Shown here: one piece after another, positions 7,100 through 37,340 of the stretch
Layout: each line of letters begins with the position of its first letter
Numbering within the stretch: the stretch's first letter is position 1
Assembly (NCBI GenBank): GCA_963770765.1
Contig: CAVYQS010000005.1
Coordinates: forward strand, 205,242-269,241
Reading direction: 5' to 3'
Length of the DNA stretch: 64,000 nucleotides
Source of the DNA: an uncultured Actinomycetes bacterium
GTDB lineage: Bacteria; Actinomycetota; Coriobacteriia; Anaerosomatales; PHET01
Translations under genes and position numbers: made by a program
Notes under the pieces: generated by a model
Databases searched by the model: none
The model's input: only the letters and a program-made list of their open reading frames with translations
What the model was told of the DNA's origin: nothing

Positions 7100-7417
7100 G
7101 TGACAACTGCCACGCAGGCAACCTCGACGAATCTGGATGCCGTCTTCAAGGCACTGGCTTCCTCACATCGCCGCGAGATCCTCGCGATGCTGAGCGCGGC
7201 CGACAGCGAGGGGAACAAGACGTGCTGTGCCGCCGAGGAGGTCTGCGCCTGCAAGATCTCCGAACGCCTGGGGTTGTCGCCGTCCACCACGTCCCATCAC
7301 ATGTCGGTCCTGCGCGACGCGGGCTTGGTCACGGGTCGCAATGAGGGCACGTGGACGTATTACACGCTACGCCGCGAGGTGCTTGCTGCGGTGGCTGAAG
7401 CGTTGACCAACTTCTAG
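7100..7417 (+). CDS. ArsR/SmtB family metalloregulator
   Basis: wHTH SERLGLSPSTTSHHMSVLRDAGLV. Cys-rich sensing region KTCCAAEEVCACKI resembles the ELCVCDL As(III) site. Confidence 0.9.
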   Translation: MTTATQATSTNLDAVFKALASSHRREILAMLSAADSEGNKTCCAAEEVCACKISERLGLSPSTTSHHMSVLRDAGLVTGRNEGTWTYYTLRREVLAAVAEALTNF

Positions 7418-7496: not shown

Positions 7497-7733
7497 ATGG
7501 AGATCAAGGTGCTCGGACCAGGATGCGCGAACTGCAACAAGCTTGAGGAGGCGACCCGCAAGGCGGTCGAGAAGGCCGGCCTCGACGCGACCATCGAGAA
7601 GGTGAGCGACCTGCAGGAGATCATGAGCTACGGCGTCATGTCGACGCCCGCGCTCGTCGTCGACGGCGAGCTCCGCCTTGCCGGTCGTGTGCCTTCCGTC
7701 GACGATCTCGTCGCACTGCTTCAGAGGGGCTAG
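7497..7733 (+). CDS. Thioredoxin_3 / MTH895-type redox-active disulfide protein
   Basis: 78 aa: MEIKVLGPGCANCNKLEE (CxxC), ..YGVMSTPALVVDGEL..GRVPSVDDL. Confidence 0.85.
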   Translation: MEIKVLGPGCANCNKLEEATRKAVEKAGLDATIEKVSDLQEIMSYGVMSTPALVVDGELRLAGRVPSVDDLVALLQRG

Positions 7734-7739
7734 CGAGTC

Positions 7740-8759
7740 GTGTTCGAGGCCATCGGCAATGTCCTTGGGTGGATGAACGAGAACTTCCTCAAGATGACGT
7801 GGCTCAACGAACTCGTTGGCCGCTTCATCGAGGACGTCTTGGGGTTGTCGCTCACCAGCAAGCTCGGCGCGAGCCTGCAGTTCTTCGTCTACGACACGGT
7901 CAAGATCTTCGTGCTGCTCTCGGCGTTGATCTTCGCTATCTCGTACGTGCAGAGCTACTTTCCGCCCGAGCGCACCAAGGCGATCCTCGGCAGGTTCAAC
8001 GGAATCACCGGCATGGTCCTTGGCGCTCTGCTTGGCACGATCACGCCGTTTTGCTCGTGCTCGTCGATCCCGCTGTTCATCGGCTTCACGTCTGCGGGCT
8101 TGCCCCTGGGCGTGACGTTCGCGTTCCTGATCTCGTCGCCGCTCGTCGACCTCGCGTCGGTGATGCTTCTTGCGAGCATCTTCAACTGGACCACGGCGAT
8201 CGCCTACGTGATCGTGGGCCTCGTGCTCGCGGTCATCGGCGGCTTCATCATCAGCCGCCTCAAGCTCGAGCGCTACGTCGAGCCTTTCGTCTATGGGAGT
8301 CACCTCGCCGATGCGGACCTGCCGGCACTGACGCGAGCCGACCGCTTGGCCTACGCTCGCGAGCAGGTCGTCGATGTCGTCAAGAAGGTGTGGCTCTACG
8401 TCCTCATCGGCGTGGGTATCGGGGCGATCATCCACGGATGGATACCGGGCACGTTCATCTCGGCGGTGCTTGGCTACGAGAACCCGTTCGCCGTCATCAT
8501 CGCCACGGCGATCGGCGTCCCCATGTATGCGGACATCTTCGGCACCCTTCCGATAGCTGAGGCGCTCGTGGGCAAGGGCGTCGGCTTGGGAACGGTGCTC
8601 TCATTCATGATGGCGGTCACGGCGCTGTCCCTGCCGTCGATGATCATGCTCAAGAAGGTGGTCAAGACCCCGCTGCTCGCCACCTTCTTCGGCATCGTCG
8701 TGACCGGGATCATCATCATCGGCTACACCTTCAACGCCTTCGGGCGGCTGTTCGTCTAG
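7740..8759 (+). CDS. ArsP_1/DUF318 family permease
   Basis: Polytopic membrane protein with the family-typical TPFCSCSSIPLF cysteine motif, in the usual ArsR-Trx_3-permease arrangement. Confidence 0.85.
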   Translation: MFEAIGNVLGWMNENFLKMTWLNELVGRFIEDVLGLSLTSKLGASLQFFVYDTVKIFVLLSALIFAISYVQSYFPPERTKAILGRFNGITGMVLGALLGTITPFCSCSSIPLFIGFTSAGLPLGVTFAFLISSPLVDLASVMLLASIFNWTTAIAYVIVGLVLAVIGGFIISRLKLERYVEPFVYGSHLADADLPALTRADRLAYAREQVVDVVKKVWLYVLIGVGIGAIIHGWIPGTFISAVLGYENPFAVIIATAIGVPMYADIFGTLPIAEALVGKGVGLGTVLSFMMAVTALSLPSMIMLKKVVKTPLLATFFGIVVTGIIIIGYTFNAFGRLFV

Positions 8760-8791: not shown

Positions 8792-9232
8792 GTGCTCATG
8801 GCAGTGAAACGGATCGTGCTTCCGGTGGATGGCTCGGCGACCGCAGAGGCCGCCGCTCGCTTCGCCGAGGACATCGCTCGCTCCGAGGGTGAGATGGTGA
8901 TCGTGTTGGGCGTGGTCGTGCCGCTTGCACCAGCGACCGATGAGGCCGTGTCGGTGACAGCCGCGATCCACCGGTTCATGACCGAGCAGGTTGCCGCCGA
9001 GGCGGCGCGAATCCGGGCAGTCGGCATACCCGCCGAGGAGCTCGTGGTGGAGGCGGGCTCTCCCCACGAAGGCATCCTGAAGGTGGCGGTGGAGCGCGAC
9101 GCCGACGTGATCGTCATGGGCACCCACGGCCGGACCGGACTCGTGCGTGCTGTCATCGGCTCGGTCGCCGACAAGGTCGTACGGCATTCGCAGGTGCCGG
9201 TGGTGCTCGTCCCCCTGAAGAGTGAGGACTGA
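8792..9232 (+). CDS. Universal stress protein (UspA family)
   Basis: VKRIVLPVDGS..., VMGTHGRTGLVRAVIGSVADKVVRHSQVPVVLVP. Confidence 0.85.
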   Translation: MLMAVKRIVLPVDGSATAEAAARFAEDIARSEGEMVIVLGVVVPLAPATDEAVSVTAAIHRFMTEQVAAEAARIRAVGIPAEELVVEAGSPHEGILKVAVERDADVIVMGTHGRTGLVRAVIGSVADKVVRHSQVPVVLVPLKSED

Positions 9233-9233
9233 C

Positions 9234-9749
9234 ATGCGCGAGCAAGAAGGCCCGCACGAACCTGTGCAGCCGGAGCCCACAGCGGAATCGGGCGTATCGA
9301 CCCGCATGGTCATCGTGTTTGTCGTGATCGCACTCTTCGCCGGGATCCTCGCTGCGAAGTACCTGTCGCCGTCCCAGCCGGGCGGAAGCGACGGTCTGGC
9401 CGCCCGGGAGTCGCTGACATCGGTGCGCAACGATGCGGCTGCCGACTACGAGGCGGCTGTGAAGTCGGGCAAACCCATCTACGTCCTGTTCCACTCGCTG
9501 AGTTGACAGTCGTGCCTTGAGATCTCGGCGGTCGCCGACACAGTCATCCCCGACTACCAGGACAAAGTCGCATTCGTGAACGCCATCACCGACGACCCCT
9601 CGGCGCAGCAGCTGTCGTCGAAGTTCTCGTTCCAGTACATCCCCTCGTCGTTCTTCGTCATGCCCGACGGGACGGTCTCGGACTCGTATACCGGACCGCT
9701 GTCTGAGAGCGAGATGCGCGCCCGGCTCGACGCGTTGGTCGCCCAGTGA
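9234..9749 (+). CDS. Membrane-anchored thioredoxin-like protein with an in-frame TGA (9504-9506) at the first CxxC position. Candidate selenoprotein (U-Q-S-C).
   Basis: TM anchor MVIVFVVIALFAGILAAKYL. Trx fold reads KPIYVLFHSLS-[TGA]-QSCLEISAVADTVIPDYQDKVAFVNAITDD..FQYIPSSFFVMPDGTV. The frame and coding character continue for 80 codons after the TGA. The final stop overlaps the ccdA GTG (GTGA). Confidence 0.6.
9507..9555 (+). promoter_or_regulatory. Candidate bacterial SECIS element
   Basis: Upper hairpin UCGGC-GGUC-GCCGA (9525-9538). The GGUC loop starts 23 nt after the UGA. A possible lower stem pairs AGUCG (9508-9512) with CGACU (9551-9555). Confidence 0.45.
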
Positions 9750-10450
9750 ACGTTGAGTCGCTCGCGCAGAATCTCACCGCCGGTGCGGCATGGGGTCCGG
9801 TCGCATTCGGGATAGCGTTCCTCGGCGGACTCGTCGCCGGGCTCGGGCCGTGTGTCTTGCCCATGATCCCGGCGGTGTTCGGCTACGTGACCGGCCAGGT
9901 GGGCGAGTCGAAGGGGACGTCACCTCTGCTTCGGGGGCTGGCGCTCTCGGCCGTGTTCGTCTTGGGGATGAGCCTCGTCTTCGCGGCGATCGGTGCGGTG
10001 GCAGGCCTGCTCGGACGCGCACTGATCGTCGACACGTGGGCGTACTACGCCGTGGCGGCCATCTGCGTGGTGATCGGCCTGCAGATGCTCGGGGTCATCA
10101 ACCTGCCCGTGGACCGGCTGAACCGGTGGCTTCCGGTGAAACGGCCCGAGCGTCGTGGTGTCGTGGGGGCGTTGCTGTTCGGCATGCTCTTCGGCCTGGT
10201 GGCGACGCCGTGCTCGACGCCCATCCTCGCTGCGATCGCTGCCATCGCTGCGACGACCGGCAACGCCGCGAAGGGCGCTGCACTGCTGTTCGTCTACGGC
10301 ATCGGCAAAGGTACGCCGCTGCTGCTTCTGGGCATCGCATCCGGCTCGCTCGTCTTCATGCGCTCGGTTTCGAGGATCACGCCGGCGCTCACGAAGATCG
10401 GCGGCGTTGGGATCATCGCTGCGGGTGCGTATCTCGTGTGGATCGCCTGA
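9746..10450 (+). CDS. ccdA: Cytochrome c biogenesis protein CcdA (DsbD-family thiol-disulfide transporter)
   Basis: Conserved GLGPCVLPMIP and VATPCSTPILAA cysteine motifs. Six-TM pattern. Confidence 0.9.
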   Translation: MNVESLAQNLTAGAAWGPVAFGIAFLGGLVAGLGPCVLPMIPAVFGYVTGQVGESKGTSPLLRGLALSAVFVLGMSLVFAAIGAVAGLLGRALIVDTWAYYAVAAICVVIGLQMLGVINLPVDRLNRWLPVKRPERRGVVGALLFGMLFGLVATPCSTPILAAIAAIAATTGNAAKGAALLFVYGIGKGTPLLLLGIASGSLVFMRSVSRITPALTKIGGVGIIAAGAYLVWIA

Positions 10451-10466
10451 CAGAAAGGTGGCACAG

Positions 10467-10847
10467 GTGGACGAAGTCATCATCAAGGTCATCGACCAAA
10501 GCTGCGCTTGAGGCGGCGGAACCGACTGCTGCGACAGCCTCGAGTCCGACCTCGCCGGATATCCGGCGGGTGCGACTTGAACGCTTCCGCTGCAATGGCG
10601 CCTGCAGGTCGTGCAGGCACGGGTTCAAGAATCGACCGGCGTGTCGGTCACAGTGGAGGAGGCAGACCTGTTCGCGCTGACGGGAGCAGACAGGGAAGCA
10701 GCCCTCTCGGGCCTGACCTCCGGTCTCGAGCTCCCGTTCGTGATCGTTGAGGGCGTCCTCGCGTGCTCCGGCGACTTCGATCTGGAGCGCATCGAGCAGG
10801 CCGTGGGGGCGCGTGGTGCCGGCTCAGACACGGCGCCGCTTGGGTAG
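10467..10847 (+). CDS. ArsD/Trx_3-like thioredoxin-fold protein with two in-frame TGA codons (10509-10511 and 10578-10580). Either a candidate selenoprotein or a decayed gene.
   Basis: GTG start with AAAGGTGG as RBS. Reads MDEVIIKVIDQSCA-[TGA]-GGGTDCCDSLESDLAGYPAGAT-[TGA]-TLPLQWRLQ..GVSVTVEE..LELPFVIVEGVLACSGDFDLERIEQAVG. The layout resembles ArsD: beta1, a Cys cluster, then ..LPxxxxDG..G. There is no alternative start codon between the two TGAs. Confidence 0.4.
10598..10620 (+). promoter_or_regulatory. Candidate SECIS hairpin after the second TGA
   Basis: GCGCCUGCA-GGUCG-UGCAGGCAC, a 7-bp stem. The loop starts 26 nt after the UGA. Its apex closely resembles the fdhF SECIS apex UUGCA-GGUC-UGCAC. 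Confidence 0.4.
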
Positions 10848-10874: not shown

Positions 10875-11060
10875 ATGAGCAAGGGCGACACCGGTGCTGC
10901 GGCAGGGGCGGGAGCCGTGTACGGACTCGGCATCTTCGGAGCGATCATCTACTACATCCAGACGGCTTCGAGCTTCTGGGACGGGCTGATCGGCTTCATC
11001 AAGGCGTTCTTCTGGCCGGGATTCATGGTCTACGAGCTGATGCAGTTCCTCAGGATGTAG
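10875..11060 (+). CDS. Small (61 aa) two-TM membrane protein
   Basis: AGGGAGG RBS. Sequence GAVYGLGIFGAIIYYIQTASSFWDGLIGFIKAFFWPGFMVYELMQF. Confidence 0.55.
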   Translation: MSKGDTGAAAGAGAVYGLGIFGAIIYYIQTASSFWDGLIGFIKAFFWPGFMVYELMQFLRM

Positions 11061-12999: not shown

Positions 13000-14362
13000 A
13001 TGATCCCTCGCTACTCCCGTCCCGAGATGGCCCGCATCTGGGACCTCGAGAACAAGTTCGCGATCTGGCAGGAGATCGAGGTGCTCGCGTGCGAAGCGCA
13101 GGCCGAGCTGGGGCAGGCCGGCATCACCTCCGAGGAGGCTGCCCACATCCGCGCGCACGCCGCGTTCGAAGTCGAGCGCATCGACGAGCTCGAAGCCGTC
13201 ACCAACCACGACGTCATCGCGTTCCTCACCAACATGGCCGAGCACATCGACGCCAATCTCGGCGAGGACGACCCCAAGCCCAGCCGCTGGGTCCACTACG
13301 GCATGACCAGCTCGGACCTAGGCGACACGGCGCTGTGCTACCAGATGATGCAAGCGACCGACATCCTCATCGCCGACGTCCGCCGGCTCGGCGAGATCTG
13401 CAAGCGCCGAGCGCTCGAGGAGCGCGACACCCTGTGCGTGGGCCGCACGCACGGCATCCACGCCGAGCCCATGACCATGGGCATGAAGTTCGGCCGCTGG
13501 GCGTTCGCGTGGAAGCGCGCGCTCGACCGGCTCGAGCGCACCCGCGAGAACGTCGCGGTGGGCGCGATCTCCGGCGCCGTGGGCAGCTACTCCAACATCG
13601 ACCCGTTCGTCGAGCAGTACGTGTGCGAGAAGCTCGGTCTGCCAGCCGGAGCCGATGTCGACCCAGGTCATCCCGCGCGACCGTCACGCGCAGTTCCTCG
13701 CCGTGCTCGCGACCGTCGCCGCCACCGCCGAGGAGATCGCGACCGAGGTCCGCGCGCTCCAGAAGTCCGACACCCTCGAAGCCGAGGAGCCGTTCGCCAA
13801 GGGCCAGAAGGGCTCATCGGCGATGCCGCACAAGCGCAACCCCATCACGGCCGAGCGCGTCTGCGGCCTCGCGCGCGTGATCAAGGCCAACGCTCAGGTG
13901 GGCTTCGACAACGTGGCGCTGTGGCACGAGCGCGACATCAGCCACTCGTCGGCCGAGCGCGTCGTGCTCGCCGACTCGACGATCGGGCTCGACTACATCC
14001 TGGGCAAGCTCGAGTGGATCCTCGACGGGATGGTGCTCTATCCCCAGCGCATGATGGCGAACCTCGAATCCACGCGCGGACTCATCTACTCGAGCCGCGT
14101 GCTGCTCGCGCTCGTCGACTCGGGCATGACGCGCGAGGACGCGTACGCCGTGGTGCAGGGTGCGGCGATGAAGGTCTGGGCCGACATCCAGGATGCGGTG
14201 CCGGGTCCGGGATTCCGAGACTACCTCGAGTCGAGCGCAGCGGTGCACGGGGAGTTCCCGCTCGACTTCGGGCAGCTCGAAGAGTGCTTCGACCCGCGCA
14301 GCTTCCTCACGCGTACCGGCGTGCTGTTCGATCGGGTCGCAGGCGCTGGAGTTCTAGGTTGA
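13000..14362 (+). pseudogene. purB: Adenylosuccinate lyase, interrupted by a 1-nt frameshift near 13640-13646
   Basis: N-terminal part MIPRYSRPEMARIWDLENKF..GRTHGIHAEPMTMG..EKLGLPA in frame 1. C-terminal part (E)PMSTQVIPRDRHAQF..GSSAMPHKRNPI.. in frame 2. An extra G in GCCGGAG explains the shift. Confidence 0.8.
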
Positions 14363-37100: not shown

Positions 37101-37261
37101 GGCCGCCGGAGGTACGGAGGGCGCACGACCGTCTGCCGTGCGCACCTTCGCGAGTGACGAAAGTCACAGTCGCAGGTCAAGCCGGCTACGCGAGCGGCCG
37201 ATAACAAGGAGCGTGGAGAACGAAGGCCCGAGGGCCTTCCCGACCACTCACTGACAACCCG

Positions 37262-37340
37262 ACAAAGGCAAACCCGTCGCGAGGCGGGGGCGCAAAACCA
37301 AGGGTCTCTCGCGAGAGACAGCCTAGTTGCCGAAGGTGAT
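37262..37340 (+). promoter_or_regulatory. Candidate c-di-GMP-I (GEMM-I) riboswitch
   Basis: ACAAAGGCAAACC-CGUC-GCGA-GGCG-GGGGCGCAAAACC-AAGG-GUCUCUC-GCGA-GAGAGAC-AGCCUAGUUGCCGAAGG. Compare the Vc2 core GGCAAACC..GAAA..GGGACGCAAAGCC...AGC.GGGUUACCGA. The GAAGGUGA SD follows immediately. Confidence 0.6.

Follow-up and report, generated by a model that had tools for sequence, protein, structure and literature searches.

A probable mis-annotated gene for a two-selenocysteine, thioredoxin-fold protein remotely related to ArsD in uncultured Coriobacteriia

ArsD (PF06953; PDB 3MWH, 3KGK, and 3KTB) is a protein of about 110-125 residues with a minimal thioredoxin fold, in which the As(III)-binding residues Cys12, Cys13, and Cys18 lie in the loop between strand β1 and helix α1. 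A tryptophan early in α1, an LP(F/L)V segment carrying the cis-proline, and optional Cys-rich C-terminal tails are further features, and the protein is encoded in ArsR-controlled arsenic operons. Thioredoxin folds also occur among selenoproteins (bacterial Sec-thioredoxins, Sec-glutaredoxins, and SelW-like proteins; SaoT; eukaryotic SELENOF and SELENOM, with a CxU motif). There, selenocysteine (Sec) sits in the loop past β1, Sec- and Cys-containing homologues form pairs, a hairpin follows the UGA within the coding region, and database entries are truncated. In Haft's SAO system (bioRxiv 10.1101/2022.07.06.499078), too, the context is one of heavy metal(loid)s, with an MJ0307-like thioredoxin and a permease of the ArsP type. 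Arsenate reductase, arsenite methyltransferase, and several thioredoxin-like selenoproteins are listed in the 2026 prokaryotic selenoprotein catalogue (PMC13188914), the Haft 2022 preprint, and the deep-Sep paper. Here, we describe a gene found in a 64,000-nucleotide stretch of contig CAVYQS010000005.1 from an uncultured member of the Coriobacteriia, hereafter called the window. Lying at 10467-10847 on the forward strand, it is very probably a real gene whose annotation is wrong and whose product is a small protein with a thioredoxin fold and two Sec residues, a distant relative of ArsD belonging to a family without annotation. Taken as a whole, we consider it probable that the product is a cytoplasmic two-Sec selenoprotein of 126 residues with a thioredoxin fold remotely akin to that of ArsD, for which we infer metalloid binding or hand-off.

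A single frame leads from GTG 10467 to the TAG ending at 10847 and contains two in-frame TGAs (UGA1 at 10509 and UGA2 at 10578) that are 69 nucleotides (nt), or 23 codons, apart. It reads MDEVIIKVIDQSCA-TGA(10509-10511)-GGGTDCCDSLESDLAGYPAGAT-TGA(10578-10580)-TLPLQWRLQVVQARVQ...APLG-TAG(10845-10847). The stretch separating the TGAs has no in-frame ATG, GTG, or TTG; past the second TGA, the first start codon is GTG 10611, and the publicly annotated protein (P0001, 78 residues) begins there. A preliminary description of this DNA, made from its letters alone, had already given these coordinates and the lack of a start codon between the UGAs; re-reading the frame, the TGAs, and both hairpins led to the same result. 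The ATG or GTG of the homologues is preceded by GGAGG, AAGGAG, or AGGGAG at a distance equal to that of the Shine-Dalgarno-like element of the window (Table 1), and substitutions are spread over the codon positions alike in the three segments delimited by the UGAs.

The homologues carry the main argument. Used as the query of an exhaustive HMMER search, the protein segment past UGA2 returned 56 relatives, mostly of 65-90 residues (about 80), which start with 'MP(L/V)xWRL', two residues past the UGA2 column. A beginning of this kind, just past the UGA2 column, is what gene callers leave when they cut a selenoprotein gene short. A word-indexed protein search gave two C-terminal fragments only, and the 79 database proteins collected with the family profile are all nameless or 'hypothetical', except for one JGI 'disulfide oxidoreductase YuzD'. 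Longer relatives have Cys exactly at the UGA2 column (GATCEMPWEW, STCGMPVEW, SACGMPVE, and others). In the DNA encoding one 84-residue relative (L001), both TGAs are found upstream, in frame and at the same codon positions as in the window.

Scans of genomes and metagenomes for further loci gave none with a two-sequence alignment (A1), and a 38-sequence alignment was too diverse; a six-sequence alignment worked. The genome scan then yielded 11 loci in metagenome-assembled genomes (MAGs) of Coriobacteriia and Actinomycetes, both long-read and Illumina, with 41-85% identity to the window protein (C-terminal halves being compared in the Illumina k127/k141 contigs). All 11 have an intact frame starting from an ATG or GTG with a Shine-Dalgarno sequence, and all have TGA1; TGA2 is present in 10, the remaining locus (L007) having TGT (Cys). 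Among distant clades, L018 and L019 keep both TGAs; in L014 and L016, TGA1 is kept and the second column is Cys. Altogether, 16 independent homologous loci from Illumina and long-read MAGs and metagenome contigs were compared with the window (17 sequences in what follows). The frame is intact in 16/16, TGA1 is present in 16/16, and the second column is TGA in 13/16 and Cys in 3/16; insertions and deletions across the 17 sequences involve whole codons only. The family thus found spans uncultured Coriobacteriia and other Actinomycetota.

Both UGA columns align with Cys in Cys-form homologues, so that the covariation of Cys and Sec proposed earlier as a check is seen at each of them. Cys occupies the first column in P0030 (a cluster of three members) and the second in P0030, L007, L014, L016, and about 12 further database proteins. 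P0030 (locus L002) is an all-Cys orthologue without stops, 33% identical to the window protein, and its flanks are identical to those of L018: KVINAEACG-C and EGST-C-GMPVEWRLHVLE in the former, KVINAEACG-U and EGST-U-AMPVEWRLHVLE in the latter. Residues C13, U15, U/C38, P41, P90, and G102 are conserved in all clades. The Cys cluster first proposed (C13, U15, C21, and C22) needs revision: C13 and U15 are universal, C21 and C22 (the 'DCC' cysteines) are specific to the clade of the window, and the universal trio is C13, U15, and U/C38. The reading of one open reading frame (ORF) through two UGAs is upheld by these data. Independent assemblies share the two TGAs column for column, and the hairpin past UGA2 stays in register with compensatory changes (see below); these comparisons raise the observation above chance.

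In bacteria, the apical loop of a selenocysteine insertion sequence (SECIS), as represented in bSECISearch-type models, lies about 16-37 nt downstream of the UGA and typically contains a G. The placement of UGA2 fits this model, as does that of UGA1 in the L016, L018, and L019 clades. All 14 Sec forms have the UGA2 stem in one register, at +23 to +41 (counted from the U of the UGA), with loops of five nucleotides (GGUCG, GGUCU, AGUUC, or CGUGC). Its cells are paired at 97.8%, vs. 33-47% when the partner strand is slid, two pairs are compensatory, and the covariation score was reached by none of 500 shuffles. In one compensatory change, a Leu codon is altered synonymously (CUC to CUG) together with a replacement of E by Q. 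The hairpin, whose apex had been noted at first sight as nearly identical to that of the fdhF SECIS, behaves in the manner of a SECIS. Folding energy was also considered as evidence for SECIS elements and was discarded as uninformative in GC-rich DNA: with 65% GC, segment 10578-10650 has a z-score of -0.8, which does not exceed chance, and SECIS-sized windows rank at the 16th percentile (UGA2) and the 79th percentile (UGA1) of the local background. An Rfam scan of 9450-10700 gave no match to a SECIS or any other family.

The signals at UGA1 differ among clades. L018 and L019 have a canonical hairpin, CUCGGGC-GGUCC-GCUCGAG, at +21 to +39; in L016, ACUCGG-GCGGUCUGU-CCGAGU lies equally far from UGA1. 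The loops of both contain GGUC and begin at +28/29. For the clade of the window, the weakness conceded at the outset is real: no convincing SECIS is seen, and the candidate helices lack covariation. Two of them, (GC)GAC/GUC(GC) at +23 to +40 and GACU(G)/(C)AGUC at +15 to +39, were rejected, their pairing (65%) being that of shuffled sequences. Two other structures occupy the region between the UGAs. The hairpin directly 3′ of UGA1 (10513-10532) keeps most of its pairs, with one compensatory change (L012), and is too near the A site for a SECIS role during UGA1 decoding. Segment 10509-10580 as a whole folds unusually well (-38.4 kcal/mol, z-score -3.8), and most members of the clade fold a hairpin at the position of 10540-10580 from differing sequences and peptides, which suggests selection on the RNA. 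This long hairpin could act as a distant SECIS for UGA1, pace the ribosome, or occlude UGA2.

The codon preceding the UGA shows a further regularity. Over the window and the same columns of L001-L019, it ends in U at 35/36 putative Sec sites (UGA1, 17/17; UGA2, 13/14; the neighboring Sec-thioredoxin, 5/5) vs. 0/11 Cys-form sites. As background, third-position U amounts to 8.7% in neighboring genes, and ACU to 2% of Thr codons. No description of a '-1 U' rule was found in the literature searched. On the other side of the UGA, the base is G at the sites of the family and C in the Sec-thioredoxin.

That Sec may be decoded in this lineage is suggested by the membrane-anchored thioredoxin encoded at 9222-9749. 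Its UGA stands at the first position of the CxxC motif and is followed by a hairpin with a GGUC loop at +27. Sec and Cys alternate cleanly at this position, the window and L003-L006 having U and L008-L013 having C (as T-C-xP-C), which has the appearance of a genuine Sec/Cys pair; the alternation together with the GGUC hairpin is the best available evidence of Sec decoding here. An alternative genetic code (UGA read as Trp or Gly) was rejected, because the neighboring CcdA gene stops at a TGA (10448-10450) and because the UGA columns pair with Cys.

The fold was modeled with AlphaFold2 on the natural Cys orthologue P0030, using a 43-row alignment. The model (predicted local distance difference test, pLDDT, 80) has the topology β1, a long low-confidence loop, α1, β2, α2, β3, β4, α3; a minimal thioredoxin fold is predicted, with the invariant Pro90 at the cis-Pro position and residue 38 at the N-terminus of α1. 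Foldseek searches of the PDB returned weak matches only, all of them thioredoxin-fold proteins: the best is 1xg8 (YuzD-like; E 5e-3, TM-scores 0.52/0.55), and SelW, glutaredoxins, and thioredoxins are also returned. Pfam and NCBIfam scans with the window protein (U written as C) and 14 full-length members gave no meaningful match. Thioredoxin_3 (PF13192) had no hidden Markov model (HMM) match, and the protein lacks a CxxC; DUF1462 (PF07315) stayed below threshold, with a faint match in 1/14 members (E 0.042). A sequence-profile search of the PDB gave noise only.

Comparison of profiles was more informative. Aligned by hhalign to 26 ArsD sequences, the family reaches a probability of 72.6% (E 3.2e-5) over 101 colinear columns, vs. 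16.7% with a single ArsD sequence and 2% over 29 columns with the control, the Thioredoxin_3 family of the operon. In this alignment, C13/U15 fall on Cys12/Cys13, C21 on Cys18, W44 on the conserved Trp, and LPFV, with the cis-Pro, on LPLV. C21 is aligned with ArsD Cys18, yet it is clade-specific and stands in a loop modeled with low confidence. Many relatives end in Cys-rich GGCGCGxGCC-type tails, as in ArsD. By profile-profile comparison, the nearest relative thus appears to be ArsD, and the kinship is remote. The ArsD/MTH895 architecture claimed in the preliminary description is retained as far as the minimal thioredoxin fold and the proximity to ArsD are concerned; membership of PF06953 and the Thioredoxin_3/MTH895 part are not, neither HMM giving a match in the profile comparison that had been suggested. 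FmdB-type zinc-ribbon proteins with GGCGCG..CC tails adjoin or are fused to family members (Table 1).

The two-Sec ORF is the last conserved gene of a forward-strand operon, ArsR-Thioredoxin_3-ArsP-Usp-thioredoxin-CcdA-ORF. Writing X for the family gene, the order ArsR-Trx3-ArsP-(Usp)-Trx-CcdA-X is found in 9-10 of the 11 genome loci. Elsewhere, X occurs as ArsR-Trx3-ArsP-X-NifX-like; as ArsR-Trx3-ArsP-Usp-X beside a divergent arsA/Zn-ribbon/arsR/acr3 cluster (L018); as ArsR-ArsD-ArsA-Zn-ribbon-Acr3-X (L019); and as MFS-X. In all cases, the gene belongs to ArsR-controlled operons beside ArsP, Acr3, ArsA, or an MFS exporter, neighborhoods that resemble those of metalloid resistance. Pfam searches did not find arsA in the operon of the window; it is near X in L018 and L019, there alongside canonical ArsD. 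Nitro_FeMo-Co genes (PF02579, NifX/NifB-like) lie beside ArsR-Trx3-ArsP-X in two unrelated contigs (L014, 6372-6749; L019, 2840-3316).

Table 1. Coordinates of the two-Sec gene, its candidate recoding signals, and neighboring features (positions in the window unless a locus is named).
Feature	Position	Strand	Remarks
ArsR	7100-7417	+	Pfam
Thioredoxin_3	7497-7733	+	Pfam
ArsP-type permease	7740-8759	+	Pfam
Usp	8792-9232	+	Pfam
Membrane-anchored thioredoxin	9222-9749	+	in-frame UGA 9504-9506 (S-U-QS-C); hairpin UCGGC-GGUC-GCCGA 9525-9538
CcdA/DsbD-type membrane electron transporter	9746-10450	+	PF02683; immediately upstream, syntenic; adjacent in 10/11 genome loci
Shine-Dalgarno-like AAAGGTGG	10454-10461	+	5 nt 5′ of GTG 10467-10469
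Two-Sec protein, full coding sequence (predicted)	10467-10847	+	126 codons, GTG start, TAG stop
UGA1, predicted Sec15	10509-10511	+	motif C13-A-U15; TGA in 17/17 Sec-form sequences, Cys in P0030
Hairpin directly 3′ of UGA1	10513-10532	+	GCGGCGG / AACCGA / CUGCUGC; Gly and Cys codons
Weak candidate SECIS for UGA1	10528-10538	+	4-bp GCUG-CGA-CAGC; not conserved; alternative helices at that distance without covariation
Long interrupted hairpin	10540-10580	+	16 bp, loop AUAU; 3′ arm contains ACU-UGA2
UGA2, predicted Sec38	10578-10580	+	just 5′ of helix α1 (GAT-U-TLPLQW); TGA in 14 sequences
SECIS-like hairpin for UGA2	10600-10618	+	7-bp stem GCCUGCA/UGCAGGC, loop GGUCG (10600-10606 / 10607-10611 / 10612-10618); loop starts 27 nt past the A of UGA2; in register in 14/14 Sec forms
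U-UGA sites	10506-10511, 10575-10580, 9501-9506		
FmdB-type zinc-ribbon examples	L002 576-728; L018 3165-3347; L019 6452-6640		also P0081, P0100

Some other features of the window were noted in passing. An ORF for a hydrophobic membrane protein of 61 residues (10875-11060, forward strand), outside any Pfam or NCBIfam family, is not conserved in the syntenic loci. The gene purB (adenylosuccinate lyase, 13000-14362) is interrupted near 13640 ('ctgccagcc') by what seems to be a 1-nt frameshift, and CcdA is split likewise in L003; both splits probably reflect indels of long-read assembly and not pseudogenes. A c-di-GMP-I-GGC riboswitch aptamer (RF03167, 74.3 bits, E 9e-16) is found at 37258-37335 on the forward strand, upstream of an ORF starting at 37327.

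We propose that both in-frame UGAs would be decoded as Sec by the standard bacterial route, with SelB, Sec-tRNASec, and mRNA hairpins within the coding sequence. The product would be a cytoplasmic minimal thioredoxin fold (β1-α1-β2-α2-β3-β4-α3), with reactive residues Cys13-x-Sec15 at the end of β1 and, at the N-terminus of α1, Sec38, which part of the homologues replace by Cys. This trio would sit where ArsD has its As(III)-binding Cys12/Cys13/Cys18, split here by a flexible loop of about 20 residues. It may bind a soft metalloid (As(III), Sb(III), or an organoarsenical), which would be handed to an exporter or buffered for it. As three soft ligands (S, Se, and Se) at the As(III) place of ArsD are combined with a gene beside exporters, a role in metalloid binding or hand-off is the best-supported function, with chances that we judge to be marginally better than even. 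A bolder form of the proposal, in which the protein would be the first selenolate-based metalloid chaperone (S1Se2 site) and UGA1 would be recoded in the clade of the window by lineage signals instead of a canonical SECIS, appears unlikely to us; the signals might be the 5′ U, the hairpin directly past UGA1, and/or the long hairpin in which UGA2 is embedded.

Several observations weigh against the proposal of a Sec-containing metalloid-binding protein. Its functional part would be drawn from the gene neighborhood only. The β1-α1 loop with the reactive residues is modeled at a pLDDT below 50, Foldseek E-values all exceed 1e-3, with ArsD (3mwh, 3ktb, and 3kgk) at E of about 0.1 and TM-scores of 0.37-0.47, and Pfam ArsD matches neither the window protein (E<=1) nor any of the 14 members (E<=10). 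Canonical ArsD co-occurs with X in L019, so X is not simply an ArsD replacement. On the RNA side, two Cys forms (L007 and L014) have the UGA2 hairpin as well, which would thus owe part of its pairing to conservation of the peptide RLQVLE/RLHVLE, or be a relic. The clade of the window lacks a supported SECIS for UGA1 at the usual distance, +13 to +50 past this codon folding at only -7.1 kcal/mol (79th percentile). Finally, motif searches and tRNA scans of the 64-kb window and of the fetched loci did not find selA, selB, selD, or tRNA-Sec, the motif search in the window being uninformative, and we therefore only infer the Sec competence of the genome.

The most serious competitor keeps the two-Sec protein but makes it a thiol/selenol oxidoreductase, a dedicated cytoplasmic electron donor to CcdA instead of a chaperone. 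CcdA would then reduce the extracytoplasmic membrane-anchored (Sec-)thioredoxin, and the C-x-U / U center would cycle between a selenylsulfide or diselenide and the reduced form. This idea draws on the clade of the window, where the gene begins 16 nt past CcdA and the order Trx-CcdA-X recurs in 10/11 loci, on the C-x-U past β1 of a thioredoxin fold, a feature of the redox selenoproteins SELENOF and SELENOM (PMC9304195), and on the Foldseek matches to SelW, glutaredoxins, and thioredoxins. Other clades, however, have no adjacent CcdA or thioredoxin and yet keep ArsR with ArsP, Acr3, ArsA, or an MFS exporter; C-x-U with a distant third residue and Cys-rich tails resembles ArsD and not a CxxC redox site, and hhalign favors ArsD over Thioredoxin_3. 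An oxidoreductase of this kind is in our view rather improbable, though it has to be kept in mind.

Two further explanations would remove the selenoprotein altogether. Translation might be limited to the 78-residue ORF from GTG 10611, 10451-10610 being a structured untranslated leader or regulatory RNA; gene callers do annotate the C-terminal part only, and 10509-10580 is the segment that folds unusually well. Against this stand the conservation of frame, start codon, and Shine-Dalgarno sequence with whole-codon indels only in 17 sequences, the coding-type substitution pattern, the all-Cys orthologue without stops, and the fact that β1 and the first half of helix α1 of the predicted fold are encoded 5′ of 10611, so that we hold a leader to be very unlikely. 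Even less credible, to the point of being negligible, is the idea that the gene has decayed or that the TGAs are errors of assembly. The window does have at least one indel-type frameshift (purB, near 13640), CcdA is split in L003, and several MAGs are long-read; but both TGAs are of the substitution type, not indels, and 13-16 independent assemblies, Illumina k127/k141 contigs among them, show them at the very same columns. Decay, which had been named in advance as what could overturn the selenoprotein, was looked for in the homologues, where intact frames and recurrent TGAs were found instead. Thus, the conserved frame, TGAs, and Cys pairs, together with the uniform codon pattern, exclude in practice decay, sequencing error, and a non-coding leader, in spite of the purB frameshift.

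A Sec-containing metalloid-binding protein, as preferred here, would be of interest in several respects. The family was not found in Pfam, NCBIfam r20, or the 2026 catalogue, its database entries being truncated 'hypothetical proteins'. Predicted Sec at the arsenic-binding positions of ArsD offers a testable case for selenium ligands in metalloid trafficking, and supports reports linking bacterial Sec to heavy-metal(loid) handling. The gene is also a natural test bed with two UGAs, one with a good SECIS and one with an unclear signal, in a striking U-UGA context; it could help to work out how Sec recoding is governed in high-GC Gram-positive bacteria and to make gene callers more accurate.

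Among described systems, the Thioredoxin_3/MTH895-like 'redox-active disulfide protein 2' (PF13192), encoded in the window at 7497-7733, is likewise a small thioredoxin-fold protein of the same ArsR-ArsP operon type, but differs by the lack of an HMM match, by the marginal profile alignment, and by the CxxC that the two-Sec protein does not have. YuzD-like/DUF1462 proteins (PF07315; 1XG8, Staphylococcus aureus SA0789) provide the best Foldseek match, the faint HMM match, and one JGI label; these matches are sub-threshold, taxonomy and operon context differ, and the resemblance is one of fold only. To our knowledge, the C-x-U and U-x-M-P motifs are not attributable to DUF1462. With the thioredoxin-fold selenoproteins, the family shares Sec in the loop past β1, Sec/Cys homologue pairs, a coding-region hairpin past the UGA, and truncated entries; unlike them, it has no NCBIfam or Pfam selenoprotein match, and its two predicted Sec residues are 23 codons apart instead of forming part of a single UxxC or CxxU. 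ArsD-like or YuzD-like selenoprotein families are absent from PMC13188914, the Haft 2022 preprint, and the deep-Sep paper, and the earlier impression that no Sec-containing ArsD-like protein had been described agrees with the literature and catalogues searched. ArsD itself remains the closest comparison. It has in common with the family the minimal thioredoxin fold and size, chalcogen ligands in the β1-α1 loop (Cys12/Cys13/Cys18 in ArsD; Cys13-x-Sec15 and Sec/Cys38, with Cys21/22 in one clade, in the window protein), the early Trp of α1, the cis-Pro segment, the optional Cys-rich tails, and ArsR-controlled arsenic operons. In contrast, the window protein has two predicted Sec residues, an insertion of about 20 residues between the ligands, no PF06953 match, no adjacent ArsA, and a weak structural likeness to ArsD. 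In conclusion, this is probably a new and rare two-Sec, ArsD-like selenoprotein family, for which ordinary bacterial decoding is predicted.

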